From positions 480,001 to 544,000 of the forward strand of contig CAVSGO010000007.1 of the NCBI GenBank assembly GCA_963727525.1: a DNA stretch of 64,000 bases. Reading direction: 5' to 3'. Each line of letters starts with the position of its first letter. The stretch's first letter is position 1. The translations under genes and the position numbers were made by a program. The notes below the pieces were generated by a model that worked only from the letters and a program-made list of their open reading frames with translations, was not told the origin of the DNA and ran no database searches. This document shows, in pieces, positions 16,578 through 33,078 of the stretch. This DNA comes from an uncultured bacterium. Its GTDB lineage: Bacteria; Krumholzibacteriota; Krumholzibacteriia; LZORAL124-64-63.

Positions 16578-17942
16578 GTGCAGACGATCCTGGTGGTCGA
16601 CGACGAGGTCGCGATCCGCGAAACACTTGCCCAGATCTTGTCCTACGAGGGGTACCGCGTCCGCACTGCCGCCGACGGTCCCCGGGCACTGGCCGACCTC
16701 CAGGACGAAACGGCCGACGTGGTGCTGCTCGATGTCAAGATGCCCGGCATGGACGGGTTCGAGGTCCTCGCGCGGCTGGGCCGCGACTGGCCCCGACTGC
16801 CGGTCATCGTCATCTCCGGTCACGGCGACATCAAGACCGCCGTCGATGCCGTCAAGCAGGGCGCATACGACTTCCTCGAGAAACCTCTCGACCGCAATCG
16901 CCTCCTGGTCACGCTACAGAATTGCCTCGCCCACAGCCGTGTGGAGCGCGATCGCGAACGGCTGGCGGCCAAGGCCGGGCGCCGCGCACCCCTGATCGGG
17001 GAGTGCCCGGCCATGCACCAGGTCCGCGCCTTCATCGAGCGCGCAGCTCCGGCCAGCGGCACCGTCCTCATCACGGGCGAGAACGGCACCGGCAAGGAAC
17101 TCGTCGTGGCTGCCATCCACGCCGCGAGCCAGCGTCGCAATGGTCCGCTGATCGAGGTCAACTGCGCGGCGATCCCGAAGGACCTCGTGGAGAGCGAACT
17201 GTTCGGGCACGAGAAGGGCGCGTTCACTGGCGCCGACAAGTTGCGGGTCGGCAAGTTTGAGCAGGCAGACGGGGGGACGCTCTTCCTGGACGAGATCGGC
17301 GACATGAACGAGCAGGCGCAGGCCAAGGTGCTGCGTGCCGTGGAGGAGGGGCGATTCCAGCGCGTGGGCGGGAACGAGACGCTGCGGGTCGACGTCCGGA
17401 TCGTCGCCGCCACCAACCGTGACCTCACGCTGCCGGAAACGGGTTTCCGGCGCGACCTCTACTTCCGACTCAACGTCCTGTCTACGCACCTGCCGCCCTT
17501 GCGCGAGCGCGGTCACGACATCGATCTACTGCTCGCGCATTTCATGGCAACCCTCTCCGCGAACCTCAAGGTCAAGGCGAAGACCTTCGCGCCCGAGACA
17601 CTGGCGATCCTGCGCGGGTATGCCTGGCCGGGAAACGTCCGGGAACTGCGCAACCTCGTCGAGCGACTACTCATCCTTACCCCGGGCGATACGGTGCGAC
17701 CGGGCGACCTGCCGCTGTTGCCGGGCGCCGGCGACGGAGGTAAGGGCGAGTGGGACCTGTTGCGTTGCGCGGATTTCCAGGAGTTCAAGTCACGATCGGA
17801 GGGGCTCTATCTCCAGCACAAGTTGCGTGAGTTTCACTACAACGTCAGCCGGACAGCGGAGGCTCTGGCCATGCAGAGAAGCAACCTCTACAAGAAGATC
17901 GCCAAGTATGGTTTGCAAACTCAACCAGAGGACGAGACATGA
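16578..17942 (+). CDS. sigma54-dependent response regulator (REC-AAA+-HTH, NtrX/NtrC-like)
   Basis: ILVVDDE, LLDVKMPGMDG, GENGTGKE, ESELFGHEKGAFTGA, FLDEIGD, WPGNVRELRN, Fis-type HTH; GAAGGAG RBS before GTG. Confidence 0.95.
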   Translation: MQTILVVDDEVAIRETLAQILSYEGYRVRTAADGPRALADLQDETADVVLLDVKMPGMDGFEVLARLGRDWPRLPVIVISGHGDIKTAVDAVKQGAYDFLEKPLDRNRLLVTLQNCLAHSRVERDRERLAAKAGRRAPLIGECPAMHQVRAFIERAAPASGTVLITGENGTGKELVVAAIHAASQRRNGPLIEVNCAAIPKDLVESELFGHEKGAFTGADKLRVGKFEQADGGTLFLDEIGDMNEQAQAKVLRAVEEGRFQRVGGNETLRVDVRIVAATNRDLTLPETGFRRDLYFRLNVLSTHLPPLRERGHDIDLLLAHFMATLSANLKVKAKTFAPETLAILRGYAWPGNVRELRNLVERLLILTPGDTVRPGDLPLLPGAGDGGKGEWDLLRCADFQEFKSRSEGLYLQHKLREFHYNVSRTAEALAMQRSNLYKKIAKYGLQTQPEDET

Positions 17943-17983
17943 CGTCCTGCGCACCATCCTTCAAATAATTATCGACGTACGTA

Positions 17984-18012
17984 TTGACGGCGAGGGGTCG
18001 TTCCAGTATGTT
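17984..18012 (+). promoter_or_regulatory. sigma70-type promoter for the small peptide gene and TPR activator
   Basis: TTGACG-17 bp-TATGTT preceded by an AT-rich tract. Confidence 0.65.
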
Positions 18013-18103
18013 CAAAGCAGAAAACGGCTTCTTGCAAGACTGCAAGAGGCATCCTCCCTCAAGCGGGCGGATTGCCCGCAAGCTCGTCGCTAAGGAGGAG
18101 GAC

Positions 18104-18427
18104 ATGAAGGGAGTCCTCACCGTCCTTGTCCTGACGGCCGCCCTGCTCGTTGCGGCTTCTCTGGACAGCGGCGTTGCTCTGGCCGTCGTCGATGATGCGC
18201 CGCAGGGACAACCTCAGGGTATCGAAGTCCCGCACGGCGTACCGATGGTCATGGGTGACATGTCGGGCGAAGGCAACGAGGGCGATCCGGACGACATCGG
18301 CGGTGGTTTCCGTTCGTCGGGTTCCGGGATCGTCCACGACGTTCCGGATCCGCCTCCCGGCGGGTACGATCTGATGGATCATCTGGTCACTGTCTTTGCA
18401 CGATACTGGTTCCTCTACGTGCGGTGA
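18104..18427 (+). CDS. Small exported protein (107 aa), candidate signalling-peptide precursor
   Basis: Perfect TAAGGAGG RBS; signal peptide MKGVLTVLVLTAALLVAASLDSGVALA; acidic Gly-rich core GEGNEGDPDDIGGG; aromatic C-terminus VTVFARYWFLYVR. Confidence 0.8.
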   Translation: MKGVLTVLVLTAALLVAASLDSGVALAVVDDAPQGQPQGIEVPHGVPMVMGDMSGEGNEGDPDDIGGGFRSSGSGIVHDVPDPPPGGYDLMDHLVTVFARYWFLYVR

Positions 18428-18463
18428 GCCGGCGCCCGAGAACGCCGGCTCTTCGCTTCATTT
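18426..18463 (+). terminator. Hairpin or weak intrinsic terminator between the peptide gene and the activator
   Basis: GAGCCGGCG (18426-34) pairs with CGCCGGCTC (18443-51), followed by TTCGCTTCATTT. Confidence 0.55.
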
Positions 18464-18493
18464 CACGATCTGCGATCCACCACTCGCCAGGGG

Positions 18494-21400
18494 ATGCAGG
18501 TTATGGGCGATCGGTTTGATGGATTCGATAGCTATCCGCCGGGGCGCGAAGGAATTCGACGTACCGACGGGATAAGCGAGTATGAGCGGCTCGAGGAGGT
18601 CGGGGATCTCCACTTCCAGGCCGCCGCGTACTCGACTGCGCTCGATTACTACCGTCAAATCCTGCCTGCCGCGGTTCTGGACCGCTTCTCTCCTGCCCGC
18701 GCACTCGCTATCCTGCGCAAGGCACTCAACGCGCATCTCAATCTCGGGCAGATGAAACAGGTGGACGTACTTCTCGTCCGCGCGCACGCCGTGCTGAAGA
18801 ACGGGGTCGATCTCGCGCCGGCCGAGCTGGCACGGGAGCGCGCCCTGTTCATGGTGCGGCAGGCCGTCCTGCTGATGCAACGGTCGGACCATCAGGCGGC
18901 ACTGGACGTCGCGAAGCGGGCCTTCGCGATTCTCGCTCTGACAGATTTCCATGCCGAGGTCGCAAACCTCCAGCTCATCATGGGCGGTTGCCACCAGCGT
19001 ATGGGGCGACTCGACAAGGCGGAGGAGTTCTATCTCGACAGCCTGAGTACATTCCGCCGCGTGGGCGACGAGGTCGGCGCCGCTTCGCTCTATGGCAACC
19101 TCGCCCTGCTCTACAAGGTCCGTTGCTGCTGGGGCAAGGCCCTCGATCTGATGGACAAGGCGATTGCGCTCGTGGAGAAGCACGGCGCGCCGCAGCTCCT
19201 GACGGGATTCTTTCTCAACCAGGGCCTCGTCTATCTGAAGGTGGGGCGGTTCGCCGAGGCGCAGCTCGTGTTCGACAAGAGTCTGCGGCTCTGCCGGAGC
19301 CTGGGCGACCAGATCCGCGAACCCAAGGTCCTGCTGGCCCTGGGGCGACTGGAATTCCTCGAGGGGCGCCTGGCGCGGGCCGAGGAGACGGTGCTGGCCG
19401 GCAAGGCGCTCGCCGAACGTCTGCGGATGCGCCGCGAGTCCGTGATCGCCGACGAGTACTTCGGCGATATCCAGCTCGGGCGTGCTGATCCGCAGCATGC
19501 GCTGGAAACCTACGGATTCGGACTGGAGAAGAACCGCGGACTCGCGCACGCGGGCGACCTCGAGGCCGAACTCCTGCGCCGGGTCGCCGAGGCTCAGCGT
19601 CAGCTCGGTCACCACGCCGACGCCATCGCAACGGCCCACGCGGCCATAGCGGCCTGCGAGGCGAGCGGGGAAGTCTACGAGTTCGGTTTCTGCCGTCTGA
19701 CCCTGGCGCATGCCTACGCGGCACAGGGTGACTGGGAGCAGGCCGACGCGCATTTCCGGGGGGCGATCGACATCTTCCGCGGGCAGCATCTCGATCGCGA
19801 ATGGTGCGACACCGTGCTGCAGTACCTCGAGACGCGCCTCGAGTCGGCCGACAAGCCGGTCCTGCTCCTTTTGCGCCGCTTTCTCATCGACGCCCAGGCC
19901 CAGGCCGCGGCCGAGATCGGCGATGTCACCCTGTACGACTGCTTGCGCGGGCTCGTTCGGGTGCAACTTCGACTCGGACTCTTCGACGATGCTCTGCTTA
20001 CCGTATTCGAACTCGAACGCCACGCGCGCGGGCTCGACGATCCCGAGCGCCTCACGCTCGCAGAGCGCCTGCGGCAGGTGGTCGAGGCCGGCATGGTCGG
20101 GGGCCTCGAGGAAGCTGGATCCCCGCTCGTCGCGCTCTCCGGAATTCCCGGGCTCTTCAGTGCCGCGGACGGTTCGTTGACCCGTAACCTCGGATCGGTC
20201 CTGACGGCGGTGCGCGAGAAGGTGGGCGCGGATGTGGGATTCCTCGCCCTCGGGGAGCCCGGCAAACCGGCCACGTGGGGTCCCGCCGCGCGTCAGGGCG
20301 TGACGGAAAATCTCGTCGGGCAATTGCTGCGCTGGTTCGCCGATGAACGCAACCGGGATGGCGGGGATCAGGCACTCCTCGTGTCCCGGGTTTCGCGGCA
20401 CGCTGCCCTCGGCCGCGCGGTTCCGGCGCTGGCGGAGAACGTGGCGAGCTGTGTGTTCATGCCGATCACGGTGCACGACCGCGTGTTTGGGTTCTTGTTT
20501 CTAGGGCGCACCGTGGCCGAAGACGTTGCTTGTTTCGACCAGCAGGCCCTCGACTTCCTCGCGACGTACATGGGATTCCTGGCCCTGTTCCTGACCGACA
20601 AGATGCACCCTGCGGCCGAACCTCTGACCGCCTCCGAAGCCGATACGTTCGGTAACGTGATCACCCGCAACGAGCAGATGCTCGATGTGCTCTTGCTCAT
20701 CCGCAAAGTCGCGCCGAGCGATCTGACCGTGCTTCTGCGCGGCGAGACGGGGACCGGCAAGGGGTTGCTCGCCTACGCCCTGCATGCGCTCAGCCGCCGC
20801 AGCGAGCGCCGGTTCGTGGCGATCAACTGCGCCGCGATTCCTGAGACGCTGCTGGAAAGCGAACTGTTCGGTCATCTCAAGGGCAGCTTCACGGGAGCGG
20901 ATGTCGACAAGAAGGGGCTTCTCGTAGAGGCCGAGGGCGGTACGGTGTTCCTCGACGAGATCGGGAAGATGCCCCTCACGATGCAGGGCAAGCTGCTGCA
21001 CTTCCTCGACACGAAGGTGGTGCGCCCGGTAGGCTCCGCCCAGGAACGGGCGGTGGACGTGCGCATCGTCTGCGCCTCGAAATCCGATCTGCGGCAGCTC
21101 GTCGAGTCGGGACGCTTCCTCGAGGATCTCTACTTCCGATTGCTCGATTTCCCGATCGTGGTACCACCTCTGCGCGAGCGACCGGACGACATCCCGCTTC
21201 TCGCTGGCCACTTCGTGCAGCGGTTCGCAGGCGAGCTCGCGACCGAGGCGCCCGAGATCGGCAACGCGTGCATGGATGCTCTCGTCCAGTTCGACTGGCG
21301 AGGCAACGTGCGAGAGCTGGAGAAATGCCTGAAACGCGCCATGATCCTGGCGCAAGGCGAACCCGTACTGCGCCCGGATCATCTGCCGCGCGAGATGGTG

Positions 21401-21595
21401 CCATATCTCGCCGGAGGCGGTGGGGCCGACGTGATGCCACTTCGCGATATGCTGGCTGCCGTCGAGTCGCGTGAGATTGCGCGAGCCTTGCGCATGACGG
21501 CCGGCAACAAGGCGGCTGCGGCGCGCCGTCTTCAGATTTCCTATCCGAACCTTCTCAAGAAGATCCGCTTCTTCGGCCTCGCGGACGAGACCTGA
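18494..21595 (+). CDS. TPR-repeat + GAF-like + sigma54 AAA+ enhancer-binding protein with C-terminal HTH
   Basis: N-terminal TPR-like helices (e.g. ASLYGNLALLY...ALDLMDKAIAL, NQGLVYLKVGRFAEA); GAF-like segment (CVFMPITVHDRVFGFLFL); GETGTGK, ESELFGHLKGSFTGA, FLDEIG, WRGNVRELE; HTH GNKAAAARRLQISY. No receiver domain. Confidence 0.93.
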   Translation: MQVMGDRFDGFDSYPPGREGIRRTDGISEYERLEEVGDLHFQAAAYSTALDYYRQILPAAVLDRFSPARALAILRKALNAHLNLGQMKQVDVLLVRAHAVLKNGVDLAPAELARERALFMVRQAVLLMQRSDHQAALDVAKRAFAILALTDFHAEVANLQLIMGGCHQRMGRLDKAEEFYLDSLSTFRRVGDEVGAASLYGNLALLYKVRCCWGKALDLMDKAIALVEKHGAPQLLTGFFLNQGLVYLKVGRFAEAQLVFDKSLRLCRSLGDQIREPKVLLALGRLEFLEGRLARAEETVLAGKALAERLRMRRESVIADEYFGDIQLGRADPQHALETYGFGLEKNRGLAHAGDLEAELLRRVAEAQRQLGHHADAIATAHAAIAACEASGEVYEFGFCRLTLAHAYAAQGDWEQADAHFRGAIDIFRGQHLDREWCDTVLQYLETRLESADKPVLLLLRRFLIDAQAQAAAEIGDVTLYDCLRGLVRVQLRLGLFDDALLTVFELERHARGLDDPERLTLAERLRQVVEAGMVGGLEEAGSPLVALSGIPGLFSAADGSLTRNLGSVLTAVREKVGADVGFLALGEPGKPATWGPAARQGVTENLVGQLLRWFADERNRDGGDQALLVSRVSRHAALGRAVPALAENVASCVFMPITVHDRVFGFLFLGRTVAEDVACFDQQALDFLATYMGFLALFLTDKMHPAAEPLTASEADTFGNVITRNEQMLDVLLLIRKVAPSDLTVLLRGETGTGKGLLAYALHALSRRSERRFVAINCAAIPETLLESELFGHLKGSFTGADVDKKGLLVEAEGGTVFLDEIGKMPLTMQGKLLHFLDTKVVRPVGSAQERAVDVRIVCASKSDLRQLVESGRFLEDLYFRLLDFPIVVPPLRERPDDIPLLAGHFVQRFAGELATEAPEIGNACMDALVQFDWRGNVRELEKCLKRAMILAQGEPVLRPDHLPREMVPYLAGGGGADVMPLRDMLAAVESREIARALRMTAGNKAAAARRLQISYPNLLKKIRFFGLADET

Positions 21596-21672
21596 TCCCT
21601 GGAATCAACGATCGACGCCCAGGCATTGCCTTGCTGCCGCATGGAACGGATTGCGCCGCGGGGCTCCCAGGG

Positions 21673-21826
21673 TATAAATCTTTTTGTCATCCCAACTCAT
21701 TGTATCCAAGCGAGTTACGATTCGTGCGGGCTGATTGTAAATTCGTTTTATAGTGCGGCCCGGACACTCGCGCGCCAAAGCACTTTTCTGCTCTGCAACG
21801 TATTTTATTGTAACGACTTATAAAAC
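21673..21826 (+). promoter_or_regulatory. AT-rich sigma54 enhancer region: candidate activator palindromes and IHF-like sites
   Basis: TATAAA-N5-TTGTCA (21673-89) and TGTAAA-N5-TTTATA (21736-52), 63 bp apart; IHF-like ATACAA-N4-TTG (minus, 21693-705) and TTGTAA-N4-TTA (21808-20). Confidence 0.5.
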
Positions 21827-21845
21827 AGAATAGGTCTGCTGTTTC

Positions 21846-21861
21846 CGGCATGACTTCTGCA
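21846..21861 (+). promoter_or_regulatory. sigma54 (-24/-12) promoter
   Basis: CGGCAT-GACTT-CTGCA with GG (21847-48) and GC (21859-60) at the canonical GG-N10-GC spacing; predicted +1 near 21872. Confidence 0.65.
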
Positions 21862-21871
21862 GATAGGGGAT

Positions 21872-22186
21872 CCGAAGGGGTGAGTAGTAGGGAACGAACC
21901 CACTTCATGGAATCAAGATCGTGACTTGGAGGCGCGGAGCGGAGACTCGCGCATACCGGCAAACGCGGGAGACGTTTTCATCATGTAGGTTCGCAACGAG
22001 GACTTAAAGAGGTGGGGTCTTTACATTCCTCGAGTGCGAACGTGGAGAACGACCGCAACACGACCTTCAAGCACGATCTTGGTCTACGTAAGAATTTTGT
22101 GAGCGAAGGGCCCTGGTTGGTTCTGAATTGGCGAGATTCAGAACCAAGATGCCGTTCTCGGCGGCGAGGGCTCTTCGCTATTCTTT
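21872..22186 (+). ncRNA. Unassigned highly structured non-coding RNA (~315 nt)
   Basis: Nested helices read by hand: 21914-32/22064-81 (18 bp, one bulge); 21973-79/22045-51; 21989-95/22035-41; 21997-22002/22027-32; 22005-10/22018-23; 22102-14/22167-79 (13 bp); 22117-28/22136-47 (12 bp perfect). Followed by ATTCTTTGT; no credible ORF. Confidence 0.6.
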
Positions 22187-22452
22187 GTCCCCTCCGTTTC
22201 GCCGTCACCGGACGTGTGTTCCCCGGGTTGATCCCGCCGTCTCCAAAGATGGACGCTGTCCTCCGATCCGCACAGCCGCGACCCGATCGGCGACCGCACA
22301 TCGCGACCGTGACCGAGTACCTCATGGCCCAAGTGTCCGGATCCGGGTGTCATGGCAAGATCTTGTCTTATAGTGTTTTATACCGCGTATGAGCTCGGGT
22401 TGGCCTCGCTAGAAGGGCCGCCCCGACCCGGTATGGCGGCATGGGCCGGCGC

Positions 22453-22468
22453 TGGCACGAAGCCTGCG
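22453..22468 (+). promoter_or_regulatory. sigma54 (-24/-12) promoter for the lipoprotein/DUF4384 operon
   Basis: TGGCAC-GAAGC-CTGCG, GG-N10-GC, about 40 nt upstream of the ATG at 22510. Confidence 0.6.
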
Positions 22469-22509
22469 ATATGGTCGAGAAACACGAGGCGCCCTCGAGG
22501 AGGGAGATC

Positions 22510-23469
22510 ATGACTCGATCCGCAAGAATCCGGCACCGCGACATCGGCCTGCTGCCTCTGGGGTTAGCCCTCGCGCTGGCGTGGGCGCTATCGGGCTGCA
22601 GCAGTGATGATTGCGCCACGTGCGTCGAACCGGCACCCGTCGCTCCGACCAGCGTGTACTCGGAGAGCGGCGACAACCAGATCACGCTCTACTGGAGCGA
22701 TTTCGCCGAGATCTACAGCACCGTCGATCGCTACCAGGTCTTCAGCCGTTTCTACCAGAACGGCGACGAGAACGACCCGAACCGAACGTTCTATCTTATC
22801 GACGAGGTGGCCGTCGGCCAGAACTATGATCCCGACCTCCACCAGTACTCGTATGTCGACAATGCTGCGGACGTGGAGAACGGCGTCGACCTCGAGTATG
22901 CCGTGCGGGCGGTGTCGGCCTCGGGGCAGGCGGGCGATCTGAGCTACGAGCTGGTCATCGACACGCCGCTGCCGATGAGCGCGAGCCCCGTCGAGCTGTT
23001 CGATGCGGGCGGCGCCAATGGCAACCTCGGCGGCTTCGATTTCAGCCGGCTCGACAACGGGCGGGTGGATCCCAATGCCGTCGGAACCTCGGCCGACGTG
23101 AGGGTCGTATTCCGTGACGGCGTGCCATACCTCGAGGCCGTGCGGACCGAGGTGCATCTGCAGGATTTCGGTGTTTTCTCGGGCGGCAACGGGCAGCTCG
23201 ATTTCGCGGGGGTGTCCTGGGCACCGACCGATGGATATTCTGCGGCTGGTGTCCTCGAGATGATCGCCGGACACATCTACGTGGTCGAGATCACGAATGA
23301 ACCGGCCGGGGAGACCCACTACGCAAAGCTGGGCGTGACGAGCATCGTGCCAGCGACCCAGTCGGTCGAGGTGATGTGGGCCTACCAGCTCGTCAATGGT
23401 TTGCAGGAACTGCGTGTTCCTGACGAGCCGTCGCCGCGAGTGGACGAGTACGTCCCGATCAAGCTCTAG
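22510..23469 (+). CDS. Lipoprotein with FN3-like N-terminal domain and possible HmuY-like C-terminal domain
   Basis: AGGGAG RBS; lipobox ALSG-C; PVAPTSVYSESGDNQITLYW...EYAVRAV (FN3-like); HYAKLGVTSI...WAYQ. Confidence 0.8.
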   Translation: MTRSARIRHRDIGLLPLGLALALAWALSGCSSDDCATCVEPAPVAPTSVYSESGDNQITLYWSDFAEIYSTVDRYQVFSRFYQNGDENDPNRTFYLIDEVAVGQNYDPDLHQYSYVDNAADVENGVDLEYAVRAVSASGQAGDLSYELVIDTPLPMSASPVELFDAGGANGNLGGFDFSRLDNGRVDPNAVGTSADVRVVFRDGVPYLEAVRTEVHLQDFGVFSGGNGQLDFAGVSWAPTDGYSAAGVLEMIAGHIYVVEITNEPAGETHYAKLGVTSIVPATQSVEVMWAYQLVNGLQELRVPDEPSPRVDEYVPIKL

Positions 23470-23505
23470 GGCCGCACGACGCGGTCACGACCAGGGAGGC
23501 ACGAC

Positions 23506-25365
23506 ATGACACACAGGAATGCGGACCAGCAACGACATCGCGCGTTGGTGCCCGGCCACTCGCCGGTACCTGGATTCGCGATGGTACGGGGCCTCGTGGT
23601 GATCGCCCTCCTGGTGGTTGCGGCCAGCGTGGCGGTCGGCCAGCCCGAAACGGACAAGAGTGCCCCGGCGAACACCGCCGACGCGGCTGCGCGCTATGCC
23701 GCGCAGGACCTGCGCGTCAACGTATGGGTCGACAAGGGCGGCGATGAGGTATATCGCCGCGGCGAGCTGATGAGCGTGTCGTTCCAGGCCAATGCGGACG
23801 CCTACATCGTCGTCTACCGGATCGACGCGGATGGCCGCGTGGAGATCCTCTGGCCGATCAGTCGCTACAACGATGGCTTCGCCTTCGGTGGGCACGAGTA
23901 CACGCTACCGACGAATGGTTCCGATCGGCTACGCACGGCGAGCGACGAGGGCGTGGGCTACGTGCAAGTGCTTGCCTCGCGCTATCCCTTCGATCTGCGC
24001 GCTCTCGACGTCGATTTCCACCAGGAGCCCTCGCAGCCGATCCACGACTACTACGTGACCGGTGATCCGTTCCTGGCCATGAACGAGGTCAACTTCGCCA
24101 TCACCGGGCTCGATGACCCGGGCGAGTTCGTGGTGAGCAACTACGCTTCCTACTACGTCCACCGTCAGGTCGATCATCCGCGTTACCTCTGTAGCCAGTG
24201 TCACCTCAATGACGGCTATGCGGATCGTCCGTACGATGCGGTCTGCACGATCGAGATCCACCACGACTACGGCTGGGCCAACGACTGGTGGGACACCTAC
24301 CGCTACTATCCCGTGTACTACTACCCGGCGTTCTACTACGTCGATCCGTGGTGGGGATCGCCCTGGGTGTCGTACTGGTACCGGCCGTGGTATCGCTGGC
24401 CTCTGGCCGTGGGCATCTACGACTGGTCGTACACGTGCTACGACTGGCGCTACTCGCCCTACTGGCGGGGCGACTGCTACACGGTGTCGCGCGATCTGCC
24501 GCATCGTTACCGGCCGCTCGACAAGACCCGCGTGGCCGGCGTCGACAAGCATGAAGGAAATGTCGGTTCGCGGCTGGTCACGGCGCGGCGACCGGGAAAT
24601 GACGTGGTCGCGGCCATGAAGTCTCGCGAGGCCGTGCGTAGCGATCGGGTGCGCGACGCTGTACGGAAGAACGATGTAGTGGCAGGCGGCCGGACATACC
24701 GGGACGTGAGCCCCGAGTCGCGGTCGCAGGGAAAGTTCACGCGTGACGGCCAGGGACGGACCTCCCCTGGCCTGCGCGTGCCGGAGAGGGGCGGGAGCGG
24801 TACGGCGCGTGCCGGCGACCGGGGTTCCCGCCCCACCGCCGACCGGCCGATCAGCCCCGCCGGCGGTCGAAAAGTCCTCGGCCCCCGCGTGGAACCGGGC
24901 ACGCCGGATCGCAGCGAGCGAGTCCAGGATACCCGTAGCGGGCGCGAGAGCGGTACGAATCGCCAGACCGGTGACCGCCGAACCATCAGGCCGGTCGAGC
25001 CTCGTCAAGGCTCGGTCTGGTCGGGCCGACGCGGGTCGAGCTCGCGGGGTTCCGAGCCTGCCCGCCCGGCGGAACCGGCGCGCGGCGGTAGCAGTGGCAA
25101 ATCTGGCAGCAGCGGCTCGTCTGGTCGCGTGGAACGCCCCTCCTCGCCGAGTCGCAGCGAAGGCACGTCGCAGAACCGCGAATCCTCGTCCAGTGGCCGA
25201 AGCAGCCACTCGAGCGGCAGCCGCGGCAGTTCCGTCAAGTCTTCGGGGTCGTCGCGCGGATCGTCGCCGGCGCAATCCTCGGGCGGTTCGGCGCGCTCCT
25301 CCTCGGGTACGAGCCGCGGGAGCTCGGGTCGCAGCAGCAGCCAGACCAGGGGAGGCCGGCGCTAG
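23506..25365 (+). CDS. Exported DUF4384-domain protein with Tyr/Trp-rich middle and Ser/Arg/Gly low-complexity tail
   Basis: GGGAGG RBS; signal-like hydrophobic stretch; VWVDKG...YRRGE...DAYIVVYRIDADGRVEILWP (DUF4384-like); WWDTYRYYPVYYYP region; SSGSSRGSS tail. Confidence 0.82.
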   Translation: MTHRNADQQRHRALVPGHSPVPGFAMVRGLVVIALLVVAASVAVGQPETDKSAPANTADAAARYAAQDLRVNVWVDKGGDEVYRRGELMSVSFQANADAYIVVYRIDADGRVEILWPISRYNDGFAFGGHEYTLPTNGSDRLRTASDEGVGYVQVLASRYPFDLRALDVDFHQEPSQPIHDYYVTGDPFLAMNEVNFAITGLDDPGEFVVSNYASYYVHRQVDHPRYLCSQCHLNDGYADRPYDAVCTIEIHHDYGWANDWWDTYRYYPVYYYPAFYYVDPWWGSPWVSYWYRPWYRWPLAVGIYDWSYTCYDWRYSPYWRGDCYTVSRDLPHRYRPLDKTRVAGVDKHEGNVGSRLVTARRPGNDVVAAMKSREAVRSDRVRDAVRKNDVVAGGRTYRDVSPESRSQGKFTRDGQGRTSPGLRVPERGGSGTARAGDRGSRPTADRPISPAGGRKVLGPRVEPGTPDRSERVQDTRSGRESGTNRQTGDRRTIRPVEPRQGSVWSGRRGSSSRGSEPARPAEPARGGSSGKSGSSGSSGRVERPSSPSRSEGTSQNRESSSSGRSSHSSGSRGSSVKSSGSSRGSSPAQSSGGSARSSSGTSRGSSGRSSSQTRGGRR

Positions 25366-25616: not shown

Positions 25617-25645
25617 TTGACCCCCGCCCGGCGTGTTCTTATCAT
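25617..25645 (+). promoter_or_regulatory. sigma70-type promoter
   Basis: TTGACC-17 bp-TATCAT upstream of the M6-like/porV pair. Confidence 0.65.
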
Positions 25646-25697
25646 GGCCGGCACCTCGCATCGGACGGAATCCGACATCCCCGAAAGGTCCAGGTCG

Positions 25698-28600
25698 ATG
25701 GCAACCTCCGACCGCCGCGCCCGTTGCCCGTTTTCCATTGCTGGTCGCGCGTTCCTCGTTCTCCTCATCGCCGCTATGGTGGCGACCACCCTGGCGCGCC
25801 CGGTGCGGCCCGCGCCGCCGTCCAGGCTCCCGGTCGACGCGGTTCCCCGCTATGTCGACAAGTTCCGCCCGCTGCAGGACGACGGTTCGACCGGTCTGCA
25901 GCAGCGGCGACTCGCCGGCGAAAAGGCGCCGGCGATGTTGCACGCCATCGTCCTGATGTGCGACTTCGCCGACAGCGCCTTCTACGGGCGTCCGGGTCTC
26001 TCGCCGGAGGCACCGGCGACATCGACTCAGAGCGATTTCTACTACGCCACGCACGATTCCCTGTACTACGCCCACCAGATGCGAGACGTCAGCGACTACT
26101 TCACGGCCGTCAGCGATGGGCAGTTCGCGCTGACGCGCGACGTCCTGGGCACCATCGTGCACCTTCCGCATCCGATGGCGTATTATGGTAACGACCCGAC
26201 CGAAGGTGAGCAGACGGTGCTGCTGGCGGCCGATGTGGTGGCCGCCGTCGATCCGCTCGTGGACTTCTCGCTCTATGACACAGTCGTGCTCATCCATGCC
26301 GGTGCCGGCGAGGAGACCGACATCCTCGACAACTCGCCCGAACAGATCTACAGCACCTATCTGGGCCCCGAAGACTTCGCGGGTGCAGTGGACGACTCGG
26401 TCCTCACCACTCCCTACATCCCGACCGACGATCAGCCGGCAGGTACCGGTGTACAGAACGTGCTCGTGCTGCCAGAGAACGAATTCCAGGATCCGTATGG
26501 CAGCTTCAAAGGCTACTTCGGATCGCTCGGTGTGTACTGCTTCGAGGTTGGGCTGCGCCTCGGCATGCTCTCGCTCAGCGACTTCACACCCTCTGGCCAT
26601 CCGGACAGCCAGGGGATCGGCGAGTTCGGCCTGATGGGCTATGGGCTCTTCGTCGGGGCCGGCTTCATTCCGCCACATCCCATTGCGTTCAACAAGCTGC
26701 TGATGGGGTGGCTCGACCCCTTCCCGGTCGACCCGACACCGGGAGCGACCTGGACCCTCGGACCAGCCGAACACACGCATGGCGCCGACGCCTGCGCGCG
26801 CGTGGACATCACGGGGCGCGAATACTGGCTGCTCGAGTATCGCCTCCAGGATCCCGATGCGAACGGCATCTTCAGCTTCACGGGAGACCTGAACGGCAAC
26901 AACGTACCCGACTTCTACGATGCGGACAGTGCCTACGGCGATGGTCGACCGACGAGTTATTTCGATCCGGCCACGGATCAACGGGAGTGGCTCACCGGAG
27001 CCGAGTGGGACTTCTTCATGAGCGAGAACACCGCGCGGCCGGACGGTGTCAAGGGTGCCGGTAGCGGTATCTACATCTGGCACGTCGACGAGGGCGTGAT
27101 CCAGGCGGCTTTCGGAGCGGCGAGCAATCTCTTCAACGCCGATGCTTCGCACAAGAGTGTGGATCTCGAGGAGGCCGACGGCATCCAGGACCTGGACACG
27201 CGGCAATCATCGCCGTGGCTCCTGGGCGGTGATTTCGACAGTTTCCGGGGCGAGGATGCGCCCGTTTTCGGGCCTGCGACGCGTCCGTCCACGGAGACGG
27301 CGAATGGTGCGCGCACCGGCATCGTGTTCGATGAGATCTCCGATGTCGCCGACTCCACCTATACCTATCACGCCGGGACGGACTCCGCCTACACCGGCCT
27401 GCACTACGCCGACGCGATGGCGTTCCGCTGCCGTCGCGCCGAAGCGTTGGTGGGCGCACCGACCCTGGCGATGACGGCGCTTCTCGACGGGATCGATCTG
27501 GGCGGATGCCAGCCTCTCGCCGCCGACCTCGATCAGGACGGGGCGGGCCAGGAGGTGCTGGCCGTGGCCGCCGATGGTGCTGTTGTGGTGCTCGATCCCC
27601 CGTCTCCAGTTCCTGTGGTGCAGTACGTCGTGGATAGCGGTGACACGGTGCGTTTCCGGCAGCCTGCCGCGGCGGGGCGTCTGGCCGGTACGCCGACGAC
27701 CGGCGGGCTCGATATCGTGGTCGCCAGCGATCGCGGCGTGCACTGGCTACGATACGAAGGTGGCGTCGTCAGCACACAGGGCACCGATCCGACGGGACTC
27801 GTCACGGCTGGCGTTTCTTGCCCGCAGCCGGCCGTGCTCTGGCCTGCCGACGGCGGGGACGGCGATGGATTCGCCGCCGAGCGCCCCGTACAGATTCGCG
27901 CCGTGGACCGCCGCGCCGATGCGGATCATCTCACGGTGGCCGACGCGACGAGCGTGATCGCGGATCTCGCCGTCCCGGGAGGGCGTATCCAGGGGCCGCT
28001 CGTGGTCGCTGGCGGCCACCTGTGGGCCGCTGCCGCGGACACGGCGGCGGGTACGGCGGTGCTCCTCGTGCAGCCGCTGACCGACCCGCAGGCCGCGCCG
28101 GCCGTGGTCCCATTGCCGCTCATGCCCGGCACGCTGCCGCTGGCCGTGACCAGGCTCGGCACCGATTTCGCGGTGGCCATCGTCGATACGGGCGGACGCG
28201 CGGCCACCGCCTGGCTGGACGAGACCACGTTGCGTGAGTCGCATCCGATTCAGCTATGGGGACGAGATCTCGAGGTGCGCTCGCCCATCGGATCGGAATT
28301 CGCGTTCGTGGGCGGGGCCGTTTGCGGGCGAGCGGCGCCGACGGGGGTCTGGTCGCTGGGCTGGCCGCTCTGGCTTGCCGACCCCGTCGAGGCGGCGACG
28401 CGAGTCGAGCGGGCCGCGGTGCCGCTGGCCTTGACGGTGAGCGGTGCCGCTGGACCGGATGTCCTCTTCGTCAGCCGCGATGGCCGCCTGTTCCGCTGTA
28501 CGGCAGGCGGCGAGGTGCGCGCGGGCTGGCCTCTCGCGGGACCGGGCGAATCGGCGGGCACACCCGTCGTGGCCGATGTGGTCGGCGATGGCGGGCTCGA

Positions 28601-29084
28601 TCTGATCACCTTCGGCGCCTTCGACCGCATCGCAGGAATCGAGGCGGGGCAACTCGTCACACGGCCGGTGTCGCGGATTGAGGTCTTCACGGGGCTGGCT
28701 GATGTGGGCGTCATTTCCGTGATGTGGTCCGGGAATCCGTGGCGGGCGGACGCCCTGCTGGCGAGCGGCGTGGCCGCCCCCGGCCCTTCGGGGGCCGCGC
28801 TCGTGGCCGGCACGCATTTCTGTTATCCGAACCCACTGCGAGCAGGCCCATTGCACGTGCGCGGTCAGGCCGGTCAGGATGGCCAGGCGCGGGCGTGGTT
28901 CTACAACCTCGAGGGGGAGGAGGTCGCCGTCTCGCCGTGGCAAGGCGTGGTGGCGGCAGCACCCTTCGAGATCACGCTGGATCTCGGTACGATCGCTTCA
29001 GGCCTGTACGTGTGCCGACTCGAGGTCGAGAGCGCGCGTGGCGGCAGCGAGACGAGTGTCAAGACCGTCGCCGTGGTGCGGTGA
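25698..29084 (+). CDS. Secreted M6-like protein with degenerate zinc site, FG-GAP-like repeats and T9SS-type C-terminal domain
   Basis: M6 scaffold (IVLMCDFAD, LIHAGAGEE, GIGEFGLMGYG, KLLMGW, EYWLLEYR, GIYIWHVDE, VDLEEADG) but YCFEVGLRLGMLSLSD where HExxH is expected; C-terminal YPNP...ASGLYVCRL...VAVVR. Start approximate. Confidence 0.85.
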   Translation: MATSDRRARCPFSIAGRAFLVLLIAAMVATTLARPVRPAPPSRLPVDAVPRYVDKFRPLQDDGSTGLQQRRLAGEKAPAMLHAIVLMCDFADSAFYGRPGLSPEAPATSTQSDFYYATHDSLYYAHQMRDVSDYFTAVSDGQFALTRDVLGTIVHLPHPMAYYGNDPTEGEQTVLLAADVVAAVDPLVDFSLYDTVVLIHAGAGEETDILDNSPEQIYSTYLGPEDFAGAVDDSVLTTPYIPTDDQPAGTGVQNVLVLPENEFQDPYGSFKGYFGSLGVYCFEVGLRLGMLSLSDFTPSGHPDSQGIGEFGLMGYGLFVGAGFIPPHPIAFNKLLMGWLDPFPVDPTPGATWTLGPAEHTHGADACARVDITGREYWLLEYRLQDPDANGIFSFTGDLNGNNVPDFYDADSAYGDGRPTSYFDPATDQREWLTGAEWDFFMSENTARPDGVKGAGSGIYIWHVDEGVIQAAFGAASNLFNADASHKSVDLEEADGIQDLDTRQSSPWLLGGDFDSFRGEDAPVFGPATRPSTETANGARTGIVFDEISDVADSTYTYHAGTDSAYTGLHYADAMAFRCRRAEALVGAPTLAMTALLDGIDLGGCQPLAADLDQDGAGQEVLAVAADGAVVVLDPPSPVPVVQYVVDSGDTVRFRQPAAAGRLAGTPTTGGLDIVVASDRGVHWLRYEGGVVSTQGTDPTGLVTAGVSCPQPAVLWPADGGDGDGFAAERPVQIRAVDRRADADHLTVADATSVIADLAVPGGRIQGPLVVAGGHLWAAAADTAAGTAVLLVQPLTDPQAAPAVVPLPLMPGTLPLAVTRLGTDFAVAIVDTGGRAATAWLDETTLRESHPIQLWGRDLEVRSPIGSEFAFVGGAVCGRAAPTGVWSLGWPLWLADPVEAATRVERAAVPLALTVSGAAGPDVLFVSRDGRLFRCTAGGEVRAGWPLAGPGESAGTPVVADVVGDGGLDLITFGAFDRIAGIEAGQLVTRPVSRIEVFTGLADVGVISVMWSGNPWRADALLASGVAAPGPSGAALVAGTHFCYPNPLRAGPLHVRGQAGQDGQARAWFYNLEGEEVAVSPWQGVVAAAPFEITLDLGTIASGLYVCRLEVESARGGSETSVKTVAVVR

Positions 29085-31471: not shown

Positions 31472-31569
31472 GATCTCACCCCTACACGGTCGGGATGCGC
31501 CGGAAACCCACCCGACCGATACTCACCGCTTCGAGTGTGCTCCCCCACCCCACTCGCGATCGAGGATGT

Positions 31570-33078
31570 ATGCGCTCGTTTCAGCCTGGCATTGGCAGGA
31601 ACCGTCCGGCGACGCCATCGCGCATCGCGGTGCGCTCGCGCACCGGCGGGATCCTCGCGATCGCCTACGCGGCGACCCTGGTCGCCGTGATGCTGGTGCT
31701 GATTGCGAGCCAGGCCCGAGCGGCGGAACGGGCGCGGCCGGAGTCGCCGTTCGTGAGCGTGGGGCGTACGGTGCGCCCCGCAGTCGTCAACATCCGCATC
31801 ACCCGCGCCGTCAACGCCGCCGGTGTGGATCAGACGCCGTTGCAGGAGATGTACCGACGATTTTTTCCAGACAAGGCCGGTGAGGGGGGACGATTCGAGA
31901 ATCCCGGCACGGGGTCCGGCTTCGTGATCGATCCGGCGGGCGACATCCTGACGAACAACCACGTCATCGCCGGAGCTGATCGTATCTTCGTCCGCTTCTC
32001 GGGCTCCCGGCGCGAGTACCAGGCCACGCTCGTGGGCACCGATGCGAGCACCGACGTCGCCCTGTTGCACATCGATCCGGACGGCGCAAGCCTACCCACT
32101 CTCAAGTTCGGCGACTCGCAGACGCTGGCCGTGGGCGACTGGGCCATCGCCGTCGGCAACCCCTTCGGCAACCTGGAGGGGACGATGACCGTGGGCATCG
32201 TGAGTGCTGAGGGACGCGGCGATCTGGTCATCCAGGGCCTGACGCCGCGGTACCAGGATTTCATCCAGACCGATGCGAGCATCAATTTCGGCAATAGTGG
32301 CGGCCCCCTTGTCGACATCGAGGGCCACGTGATCGGCGTGAACACGGCGATCAACGCGGAGGGGCAGGGTATCGGGTTCGCGGTGCCGAGCCGGCTGGTG
32401 AAGCGCATCTACGAGCAGCTACGGGATCACGGTCGGGTGATCCGTGGATTCCTGGGTGTGAAGACCATCGATGCCGTGACCGCATTGGAAGCGACAGGTG
32501 ACGATGATGGCGCCCGGGTGGAATCGGTGGTCGCCGGGTCGCCGGCGGCCGCGGCCGGGTTGAAGCCGGGCGACGTGATCGTGCAGCTGGGCGACGAGAC
32601 CATCGAGTCGCGCCGACAGCTCGATTTCGTGGTCGCCGAAGCGCCGGTCGGGCAGGCCCTACCATGCCGGATCGTGCGAGGCGGCGATCGCCAGGATCTC
32701 TCGGTCACCCTCGTGGAACTCGACGCGGCGAGTATGCCGCCGCCGGCCGCGGACGAGACCTGGCTGGGGCTCACGGTCGCCGATCTTGCGGAAACAGACC
32801 ATCGCGTCGATCGTATAAAGGAAACACTAGGGATCGAGGCCACCAGAGGAGTGATCGTGGTGGCGGTGGAGAGCGGCCAACCCGCAGCGCAGGCCGGACT
32901 GCGCCCGGGCGATATCGTGGTCGCCGTCGAGGGTCAAGAAATTGCCGACCTGGCTGCCTACACGCGAGCGCGTGATGCGCTGCGGAGCCAGCGGGAACCA
33001 TTGACCTTTCTCGTGCGCACGGGAACCCGGGAGAATTTCGTGGAGGTCACTCCCCGGGAATCGGGATCCGTGCAATGA
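31570..33078 (+). CDS. Do/DegQ (HtrA) family serine endoprotease with two PDZ domains
   Basis: GTGSGFVI, TNNHV, DVALL, IQTDASINFGNSGGPL, two PDZ domains. Start approximate. Confidence 0.95.
   Translation: MRSFQPGIGRNRPATPSRIAVRSRTGGILAIAYAATLVAVMLVLIASQARAAERARPESPFVSVGRTVRPAVVNIRITRAVNAAGVDQTPLQEMYRRFFPDKAGEGGRFENPGTGSGFVIDPAGDILTNNHVIAGADRIFVRFSGSRREYQATLVGTDASTDVALLHIDPDGASLPTLKFGDSQTLAVGDWAIAVGNPFGNLEGTMTVGIVSAEGRGDLVIQGLTPRYQDFIQTDASINFGNSGGPLVDIEGHVIGVNTAINAEGQGIGFAVPSRLVKRIYEQLRDHGRVIRGFLGVKTIDAVTALEATGDDDGARVESVVAGSPAAAAGLKPGDVIVQLGDETIESRRQLDFVVAEAPVGQALPCRIVRGGDRQDLSVTLVELDAASMPPPAADETWLGLTVADLAETDHRVDRIKETLGIEATRGVIVVAVESGQPAAQAGLRPGDIVVAVEGQEIADLAAYTRARDALRSQREPLTFLVRTGTRENFVEVTPRESGSVQ

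Follow-up and report, generated by a model that had tools for sequence, protein, structure and literature searches.

A sigma-54 activator gene, promoter, and structured RNA conserved as a candidate regulatory module in Krumholzibacteriota

The locus described here occupies positions 16578 to 25365 of a 64-kb stretch of DNA (the window, by which we mean the whole stretch that was analyzed) from an uncultured member of the Krumholzibacteriota with a 4.66-Mb, 96.7% complete genome assembly. Its core is the gene of a predicted sigma-54 activator with a tetratricopeptide repeat (TPR) superhelix and a GAF-like domain, followed by a -24/-12 promoter (P1) and a structured noncoding RNA (ncRNA). As judged from orthologous loci, activator gene, promoter, and ncRNA are well supported as a conserved unit. 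We consider it probable that they represent a lineage-wide Krumholzibacteriota module, in which the TPR-GAF activator switches P1 and the ncRNA, and in which an operon behind a second sigma-54 promoter (P2) is separately driven. Our best reading is that of a unit resembling cbrB-crcZ in which sensor and RNA are both new, and which is placed inside a two-activator, two-promoter locus that would also control surface proteins. The parts of this locus are all present and jointly conserved, far beyond chance, and every element named in a first-pass annotation of this DNA was found at or near the place assigned to it. The single-sequence match of P1 is not significant by itself, so that the case for the module is one of conservation, and the conserved promoter and RNA downstream of the activator gene, together with a conserved open reading frame (ORF) upstream, make the output half of the circuit well supported as a unit.

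Conservation was followed in 20 to 21 family loci with flanks, in 67 to 80 genome_contigs loci, and in 17 loci of more distant relatives. The orthologous loci are labeled Candidatus Krumholzibacteriota or Krumholzibacteriia, and a few metagenome-assembled genomes (MAGs) are labeled "uncultured Fibrobacteraceae," Gemmatimonadales, or Latescibacterota. In 20 family loci, a gene for an NtrC-type response regulator comes first, ~550 nt before the activator gene, and a DUF4384 gene follows the latter at a distance of ~2 kb. Response regulator and activator were present in 20/20 of these loci and the DUF4384 protein in 17/20; two of the three remaining stretches run out at a contig end or close to one, and the third, L048, has an insertion. 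The first-pass annotation had proposed a search of activator homologs for a peptide gene upstream and a promoter with an RNA downstream, and this search bore it out, with the small ORF preceding the activator gene in 73 of the 74 eligible loci, i.e., those with enough upstream sequence, the RNA in 67 of 80, and P1 in 66 of 67. After the activator stop codon, ~915 bases have a G+C content of 47 to 53% versus ~65%, and no convincing ORF, tRNA, or tmRNA was found in this gap. Activator gene and gap contain the following features.

18494 to 21595, forward strand: predicted sigma-54 enhancer-binding protein of 1033 aa with TPR superhelix, GAF-like domain, AAA+ domain (GSFTGA), and helix-turn-helix domain HTH_8 (Pfam, AlphaFold2)
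21672 to 21688, forward strand: putative distal enhancer palindrome TATAAA-N6-TTGTCA for P1 (Gibbs motif, window copy read)
21736 to 21752, forward strand: putative proximal enhancer palindrome TGTAAATTCGTTTTATA for P1 (Gibbs motif)
21806 to 21829, forward strand: A/T-rich bending site between enhancer and P1, resembling a site for integration host factor (IHF; by eye)
21846 to 21862, forward strand: P1, -24/-12 promoter CGGCATGACTTCTGCAG, with GG at 21847-8, N10, and GC at 21859-60 (conservation, sequence)
~21872 to 22188, forward strand: structured ncRNA of ~317 nt with 13 helices and the conserved loops GAGGUGGGGUC and UGGCGAGA (minimum free energy fold, covariation)
22163 to 22179, forward strand: predicted intrinsic terminator of the RNA with T-run, a terminator-like site that is part of the 3' domain of the RNA

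The ncRNA had been claimed as a noncoding structured transcript, and the ~317-nt region folds, covaries, and lacks a coding signal, the transcript itself being predicted from sequence. The window copy folds at -143.1 kcal/mol (z = -8.96 versus 100 shuffles). In an alignment of 67 sequences with 87 pairs, 82.8% of the cells are paired versus 70.8% in shuffles, and 72 of the 87 pairs show changes on both sides. Covariation amounts to 0.414 versus 0.219 in shuffles, a value that none of 500 shuffles equaled, and it falls to 0.09 to 0.18 (at most 0.184) when the pairing partners are slid by 1 to 3 columns. The fold is thus supported by covariation. A nhmmer profile built from 20 copies detected the RNA in the 67 loci mentioned above; 11 of the 13 misses are contigs that end before the site, and the core motifs of the RNA are still present in the remaining two (L121 and L128). 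The RNA is single-copy in its own genome, and a covariance model of its 3' domain found exactly one match in each of 80 of the 91 family genomes, including 53 of 55 high-quality ones. In relatives, the 3' end lies ~300 to 350 nt after the start and reads AAAGAGCC...GGCTCTTT followed by a T-run. A search of the whole window with Rfam 15 returned 0 matches at the gathering threshold, and between 21400 and 22700 there were three chance-level matches (E 0.79 to 5.6), none of them on the RNA. A weak match to the Rfam model Termite-flg at 22371-22462 (16.6 bits versus 40, E 5.6), which stops at the P2 start with ~10 bases of overlap, is read as chance.

The lengths of the RNA copies vary from 281 to 368 nt and are distributed over the mod-3 classes as 18/27/22, without preference. 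Gap runs do not come in threes, variability in the 67 sequences shows no period of three bases, and between copies the longest ORF starting with ATG varies from 0 to 101 aa. The region is noncoding. An RNA that acts in cis as the leader of the lipoprotein operon behind P2, or that encodes a small protein, would fit its position next to the lipoprotein gene in the same orientation in the family and the stop-free stretches of 42 to 115 codons that are found in it, in G+C-rich sequence. This explanation is nevertheless highly improbable, considering that a conserved hairpin with T-run closes the RNA in 20/20 aligned family sequences, that an enhancer and a -24/-12 promoter of the operon itself lie between this terminator and the gene, and that neither the length classes nor codon periodicity nor the ORF lengths point to a coding sequence. 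Most likely, the RNA is the output of the circuit and acts in trans.

The enhancer and the -24/-12 promoter that had been predicted downstream of the activator gene were recovered as two palindromes and a GG-N10-GC element, all of them conserved. GG-N10-GC lies 200 to 315 nt past the activator stop codon and just 5' of the RNA in 21/21 family loci, with GA in place of GC at -12 in one of them. Transcription from P1 would start near 21872, and the conserved GAAGGGGTGAGTTRCAGGGA stands directly 3' of the promoter, which we would expect to depend on sigma-54. Exact enumeration of palindromes was of little use as an enhancer finder, as it returned just TAAA-N5-TTTA in 18 of 67 loci, and a Gibbs search was therefore used. 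Restricted to the intergenic sequence of 67 loci, it identified TGTWAA-N6-TTWACA at either of two fixed distances from the -24 element, about -130 and about -193. Both copies of the palindrome are visible in the printed sequences of relatives, and no other site in the genome matches the P1 motif as well as the proximal copy of the window (24.4 bits). Between the enhancer and P1, a conserved CAAnnnnTTA with an A-tract at -60 to -35 was seen by eye in the printed loci; this putative IHF site corresponds to the block at 21806-21829, which we take to be IHF-like from its similarity to the consensus. In many relatives, a hairpin with T-run lies between the two palindromes and probably terminates the activator gene. 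A genome-wide P1 regulon could not be derived from the enhancer matrix, since matches to this A/T-rich motif fell mainly in an A/T-rich island. These clustered matches, at G000:C5:759000-817000, suggest an A/T-rich island of ~60 kb, possibly acquired, in a genome with an otherwise 67% G+C content.

Pfam and AlphaFold2 agree with the earlier description of the activator as a 1033-aa protein composed of TPR, GAF-like, AAA+, and helix-turn-helix parts and lacking a receiver, with the qualification that the GAF assignment is subthreshold. Pfam matches comprise TPR_12 (E 2e-21, four stretches), Sigma54_activat (212.7 bits, cut-off 20.2), AAA_lid_14, and HTH_8 at the C terminus (30.3 bits, cut-off 22), and Response_reg is absent from them. 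Residues 568-699 match GAF_2 (27.1 bits, cut-off 28.6), GAF, and GAF_3, all three under their gathering scores. In the AlphaFold2 model of residues 1-700 (predicted local distance difference test score 85.8), an all-helical repeat array of ~24 helices at 27-540 is connected through a disordered stretch to a GAF-like domain of the alpha/beta type (561-700). The translation contains Walker A (GETGTGKG) and Walker B (DEIG) motifs and a GSFTGA loop, an A to S variant. With this AAA+ core, HTH_8, and a sigma-54 encoded in the same genome (rpoN, one Sigma54_DBD match, 211.8 bits), the protein has the attributes of an enhancer-binding protein, and from the conserved sites it is predicted to bind upstream of a -24/-12 promoter and to activate it at the expense of ATP. 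Orthologs of ~1030 to 1070 aa were found in 23/24 family genomes (E <= 1e-130) and relatives with ~30% identity in 16/16 other genomes of the class. In a collection of 5.8 billion proteins, the family forms 113 clusters at E <= 1e-112, nearly all of 1010 to 1070 aa, apart from three shorter ones and one of 986 aa; the 114th matching cluster is an unrelated TPR protein (E 1e-21). The clusters are named only as sigma-54-interacting regulators (from Krumholzibacteria-type MAGs or from unnamed bacteria) or carry generic JGI labels, and one is labeled Gemmatimonadales. In NCBIfam, the activator remained far under the cut-off for every equivalog, the best being NorR with 306 versus 476 bits, from residue 649.

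A second sigma-54 activator and a second sigma-54 promoter belong to the same locus, in which enhancers, sigma-54 promoters, and activators thus each number two. Their features, together with the first genes of the operon behind P2, are as follows.

16578 to 17942, forward strand: NtrC-type sigma-54 response regulator with receiver (Response_reg, 115 bits), AAA+ domain (GAFTGA; Sigma54_activat, 218.8 bits), and HTH_8
22239 to 22260, forward strand: putative second enhancer, assigned to P2, with the sequence GTCTCCAAAGATGGACGCTGTC (Gibbs motif; consensus in the family, GTCCCCTTTTGGGGAAnnTGTC)
22453 to 22469, forward strand: P2, second sigma-54 promoter TGGCACGAAGCCTGCGA, a good match in 64 of the 65 loci that reach that far
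22510 to 23469, forward strand: lipoprotein of 319 aa with LSGC lipobox, first gene of the P2 operon (ORF from ATG 22510)
23506 to 25365, forward strand: DUF4384 protein, second gene of the P2 operon (Pfam DUF4384, 48.8 bits; no NCBIfam match)

P2, which is very well conserved as a promoter type, lies 40 nt upstream of the lipoprotein gene, and its enhancer was placed in 65/65 loci at -134 to -250 from the promoter. Relatives have lipoprotein-like ORFs at the corresponding place; the window's lipoprotein has zero Pfam or NCBIfam matches. A single enhancer common to P1 and P2 can be dismissed, since the region upstream of P1 lacks the P2 motif, its best matches having a median of -2.1 bits and a maximum of 9.8, versus a median of 23.0 at P2. 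A genome scan for a P2 regulon was uninformative, the matrix having found nothing of 16 bits or more, the window's own diverged copy included.

The first-pass annotation had the activator drive the RNA through P1. The conserved unit behind this proposal stood. As another activator always accompanies it and P2 follows the RNA, the one-to-one wiring that was assumed is not established. The response regulator occurs upstream of the module in every locus seen, and in the 20 family loci it is better conserved (64 to 72% identity) than the TPR-GAF activator (46 to 60%). An apparent lack of the response regulator in family f2 was rejected when whole-genome searches placed it ~2.7 kb upstream in 4/4 f2 genomes, two of which have DUF4384 downstream. 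It is conceivable that the wiring is swapped or shared, with the response regulator activating P1 and the RNA and the TPR-GAF protein serving P2, or with both acting on P1. The ubiquity and stronger conservation of the response regulator and the presence of two distinct enhancers for two activators would agree with such an arrangement, and a precedent is provided by Vibrio fischeri, in which two enhancer-binding proteins are reported to activate one sigma-54-dependent regulatory RNA (PMC10162802). We nonetheless regard it as unlikely, because the P1 enhancers sit right after the TPR-GAF stop codon, an arrangement also known from cbrB-crcZ and ntrC-nrsZ, and because two genes separate the response regulator from P1.

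Returning to the TPR-GAF activator as the regulator of P1, several points weigh against this reading. The GAF match of the activator is under the Pfam gathering score, and its GSFTGA loop departs from the canonical GAFTGA, its activity as an activator being predicted. In the window, P1 has C, not T, before GG, it is a weak single-sequence match, and a scan for TGGCAC-N5-TTGCW gave 26 matches versus 20.5 expected, P1 not being among them. No lineage separates the two activators, so that the pairing of the TPR-GAF protein with P1 is drawn solely from the enhancers that adjoin its gene. Moreover, the covariance model R1 of the RNA, for which RNAalifold gave just one 11-bp helix, produced outside the family weak hairpin matches in 4/18 other loci (L129, L130, L132, and L133); a fifth weak match falls within the activator gene itself (L141). 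As R1 fails beyond the family, the class-wide conservation of the RNA is a matter of motifs recognized by eye or by regular expression. Seven printed loci of other families (L131 to L133, L135 to L137, and L143) show by eye a -24/-12 element after the activator and then RNA core motifs, for example GAGGUGGGGUC or a GGCGAG hairpin, followed by a terminator, and a regular expression found at least one core motif in 14/17 loci of other families.

Given these observations, we propose the following sequence of events, in which we infer which activator acts at which enhancer as well as any role for the small protein encoded upstream. A sigma-70-type promoter would give rise to the small secreted protein and, by read-through past a hairpin, to the receiver-less activator with its TPR and GAF-like domains. 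When its signal is present, the activator would assemble on the two TGTWAA-N6-TTWACA palindromes just past its own stop codon, and an IHF-type bend would loop it onto the -24/-12 element of P1, thus opening the promoter. From P1, the structured, terminator-ended ncRNA of ~317 nt, encoded once per genome, would be made as the output, most likely acting in trans. P2, with its different enhancer, would drive the cell surface operon (lipoprotein, DUF4384 protein, and M6-like protein) and would probably be served by the NtrC-type regulator.

Sigma-54 activator genes followed by their own sigma-54-dependent ncRNA are known from cbrB-crcZ in Pseudomonas and from ntrC-nrsZ, and cbrB-crcZ appears to be the closest analog of the unit described here. 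Both share an activator gene, upstream sites, a -24/-12 promoter, an ncRNA of several hundred nucleotides, and a terminator, and the RNA of the Krumholzibacteriota locus is present in one copy per genome. They differ in that a TPR and GAF-like sensor here replaces the receiver, that the RNA belongs to no Rfam family and shows none of the repeated protein-binding motifs of an Hfq/Crc sponge, with Hfq not found in the 96.7% complete genome, and that the locus is shared with another activator and with P2. CrcZ/CrcY and RpoN appear together in PMC6292655. In NifA, NorR, and FhlA, as in the TPR-GAF activator, a GAF-like domain directly precedes the AAA+ core and a receiver is absent, whereas here the GAF-like domain comes after a TPR superhelix of ~540 residues. 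In the LuxO-Qrr system, Qrr feeds back on luxO. Like that system, the locus has a sigma-54 activator that would drive a regulatory RNA as the signaling output, and a CTCGCC at the ribosome-binding site of the activator gene is complementary to a loop of the RNA, although a duplex-energy test did not support pairing. Unlike LuxO, which is a response regulator on a phosphorelay, the activator has no receiver, and Qrr RNAs are ~100 nt long, Hfq-dependent, and often multicopy, compared with 317 nt and a single copy here. The LuxO-Qrr quorum-sensing circuit of Vibrio is treated in 10.1101/2021.07.01.450815.

The input side of the circuit was proposed to lie in the small gene directly upstream of the activator, and this part of the locus contains the following features.

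17984 to 18012, forward strand: candidate sigma-70-type promoter, TTGACG (17984-17989), 17-nt spacer, TATGTT (18007-18012) (consensus scan)
18104 to 18427, forward strand: small secreted protein of 107 aa, with the ribosome-binding site AAGGAGGAGG 3 nt before ATG (ORF table)
18426 to 18451, forward strand: G+C-rich 9-bp hairpin overlapping the stop codon of the small ORF (sequence, RNAfold)
18483 to 18488, forward strand: conserved CTCGCC directly 5' of the activator Shine-Dalgarno sequence (62/68 loci; a lead only)

All three elements of the small gene that had been named beforehand were seen again: the promoter by consensus scan, the 107-aa exported peptide gene with its ribosome-binding site and N-terminal signal peptide, and the hairpin after it both in the sequence and by RNAfold. 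Read by eye, TTGAC-type -35 boxes with CGTAAAT- or TATAAT-like -10 elements recur at the corresponding position ahead of the small ORF in the printed relatives. The hairpin at its end, present in about 12 of 21 family loci as read by eye, has no clear T-run, and it may thus be a partial terminator or a hairpin that stabilizes the mRNA. The protein begins with a signal peptide, continues with an acidic middle rich in Gly and Pro and with a G-D-P...G motif, and ends in a Trp/Leu-rich, amphipathic C-terminal helix, the latter being kept across the class like the signal peptide. In the 20 family loci, such an ORF is invariably present between the response regulator and activator genes, and its product has a C terminus that is hydrophobic or amphipathic. 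M1, G60, D61, P62, and G68 are invariant in the alignment, and most relatives have GDPDDxIxGN. The ORF measures 100 to 125 aa in relatives, with a mature product of ~80 aa, and the window's protein has zero Pfam or NCBIfam matches. In the 5.8-billion-protein collection, its family amounts to 29 clusters, all annotated "hypothetical protein," and those with a named source are Krumholzibacteriia. Among the more distant relatives, the small ORF is present in 15/17 loci, with the motif variants GDGDD, GDADD, and PGDDD, and the two misses are the loci of family f5 (L140 and L141). The activator orthologs of these f5 loci have 869 aa and a different N terminus, and no adjoining small signal-peptide ORF or RNA core motif was found with them. 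In the single miss among the 74 loci, L053, the small ORF looks broken, and what is left of it is a short reading frame that encodes GDPDELGGGF and the C-terminal helix. A conserved AGACGGGGTG is located in the 5' leader of the small ORF, ~20 to 30 nt before the start, in L060, L064 to L067, L069, and others; this element, not obvious in the window, resembles the RNA loop GAGGTGGGGTC and is not complementary to it.

From the adjacency of the two genes, the first-pass annotation had concluded that peptide sensing in the style of the RRNPP family (Rap, NprR, PlcR, and PrgX, with adjacent pro-peptide genes) is joined to a sigma-54/small RNA output. The output half of this proposal held up, and the input half has gained nothing beyond gene adjacency and co-conservation; on that basis, a peptide-sensing input is possible. 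Placement of the sensor among TPR sensors of the RRNPP type did not survive comparison, and membership of the activator in this family is not supported. In Foldseek searches with the sensor, LGN/Pins, TONSOKU, OGT, and APPBP2 ranked on top, with E values down to 1.4e-9 (LGN), and there was no RRNPP chain among the matches listed to rank 50. A sequence profile of the sensor matched in the PDB first a bacterial kinesin-light-chain-like protein (9e-12) and then KLC1/2 and LGN, while Rap105 (E 0.003) and RapI (E 0.008) were marginal. The nearest TPR relatives are peptide-binding superhelices, which makes a protein or a peptide a plausible ligand of the activator's TPR domain. LGN/Pins and kinesin light chain share with it the TPR_12-type superhelix and differ in being eukaryotic or stand-alone scaffolds with no tie to transcription, and this likeness would tell just that the TPR domain is of the peptide-binding type. 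As in RRNPP systems, a cytoplasmic TPR-type sensor is encoded beside a small gene with a Sec signal, in 73/74 loci. The differences are an output composed of the GAF-like, AAA+, and HTH_8 domains instead of helix-turn-helix alone or phosphatase, a host that is a diderm of the FCB (Fibrobacteres-Chlorobi-Bacteroidetes) group, and a product of 100 to 125 aa.

Compatible with the module proposed above, to which it adds an input, is a full circuit in which the small secreted protein, intact or cut to a fragment, serves as a cell-cell signal that is reimported and bound in the TPR groove, turning the activator on. Its co-conservation with the activator in family and distant loci, the retained signal peptide and invariant GDP..G, the confinement of the small-protein family to these bacteria in its 29 hypothetical clusters, the binding of extended peptides by the nearest solved TPR relatives (LGN/Pins, kinesin light chain, and APPBP2), and the lack of a receiver domain in the activator are all in line with this idea, which we still judge rather doubtful. 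Membrane segments are lacking in the activator, whereas the small protein is marked for export by a Sec signal, placing them in different compartments unless there is uptake. RRNPP signals are products of 5 to 10 aa cut from pro-peptides of 40 to 60 aa, whereas the mature protein has ~80 aa. The sensor resembles Rap proteins only marginally, with no RRNPP chain among the listed structural matches, and adjacency would also fit co-regulation or a role of the small protein in the output. A complex prediction of TPR residues 1-560 (21-row alignment) with mature residues 28-107 (20-row alignment) scored 0.29 and 0.06 versus a mark of 0.32, in a run without controls, and speaks neither for nor against binding. 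Going one step further, it is tempting to speculate on a diderm sigma-54 counterpart of RRNPP systems, in which a mini-protein or a fragment released at GDP..G reenters the cell, is read by the TPR domain, and turns on the ~317-nt RNA, an extension that we hold to be distinctly unlikely.

The class-wide combination of a signal peptide with a Trp/Leu-rich amphipathic C-terminal helix could alternatively mean that the small protein reports on export or on the state of the envelope. Its unexported precursor or its C-terminal helix would then be caught by the TPR domain, and the RNA and the surface protein operon would make up a Psp-like stress response. Such a response would accommodate the lipoprotein, the DUF4384 protein, and the sub-cut-off M6-like protease dependent on the type IX secretion system (T9SS) encoded with P2, as well as the DegP/HtrA-type protease gene at 31495-33078. 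Being pure inference and leaving the acidic middle and GDP..G without a role, this reading, including its stress response, seems to us very unlikely.

As for what the RNA of the proposed module might do, Hfq was not found in its own genome and CsrA is encoded there. No repeated protein-binding motif was recognized in the RNA. With 9.2 GGA motifs per RNA versus 7.4 expected, GGA is not enriched, and the lone conserved unpaired copy is ACAGGGAU in the 5' hairpin loop (66/67 sequences), the other conserved GGAs being in helices. A CsrA sponge of the CsrB/RsmZ type is thus unlikely and was ruled out on GGA counts and pairing state. At the translation start of the activator gene, most printed family loci have the conserved CACTYCCTCGCCRRGGGA (window 18476-18496). 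The CTCGCC within the start region is the exact complement of the RNA hairpin loop GGCGAG, which is conserved in 67/68 loci (window 22130-22135). Feedback of the RNA on its activator by pairing of these two motifs was rejected: their flanks do not covary, families f3 and f7 have the loop and not CTCGCC, and duplex energies gave a mean z of -0.50 versus -0.26 for controls, with the loop used in 17/68 best duplexes. The complementarity is kept as a lead only.

The RNA represents a new family, large, with strong covariation, one copy per genome, and near-universal in its bacterial family, and none of 4227 Rfam models matches it. Its host lineage is a candidate phylum without a cultured member; since the RNA comes with promoter elements of its own and with a candidate activator, it could be studied in a heterologous rpoN+ host even though the organism is ungrown. 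The sensor design, with a TPR superhelix of ~500 residues and a GAF-like domain joined to a sigma-54 AAA+ core, appears to be new as well. Among the matches listed in a full-text literature search, to which subscription journals and supplements were external, tetratricopeptide and GAF domain were never combined, and Krumholzibacteriota and sigma-54 never occurred together. If the small protein were indeed the signal, TPR peptide sensing would be coupled to sigma-54 control in a diderm.

Further observations concern the surroundings of the locus and its genome. Downstream of the first two P2 operon genes, 25617-29084 encodes a 1155-aa lookalike of a T9SS-dependent M6-like inactivated metalloprotease (177 bits versus a cut-off of 600), and the DegP/HtrA-type protease gene at 31495-33078 has two PDZ domains. 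In L048 (genome G007), the gap between the RNA and the lipoprotein gene is ~1.2 kb longer than elsewhere, possibly through an insertion, and includes additional opposite-strand ORFs, of which one is Cys-rich. The genome of the window yielded 26 matches to the activator, ~22 of them on the AAA+ core, and its sigma-54 system is unusually large. Further genes combining TPR and AAA+ are located in it at C5:48866-50677, C7:331439-333229, and C3:131874-133700.

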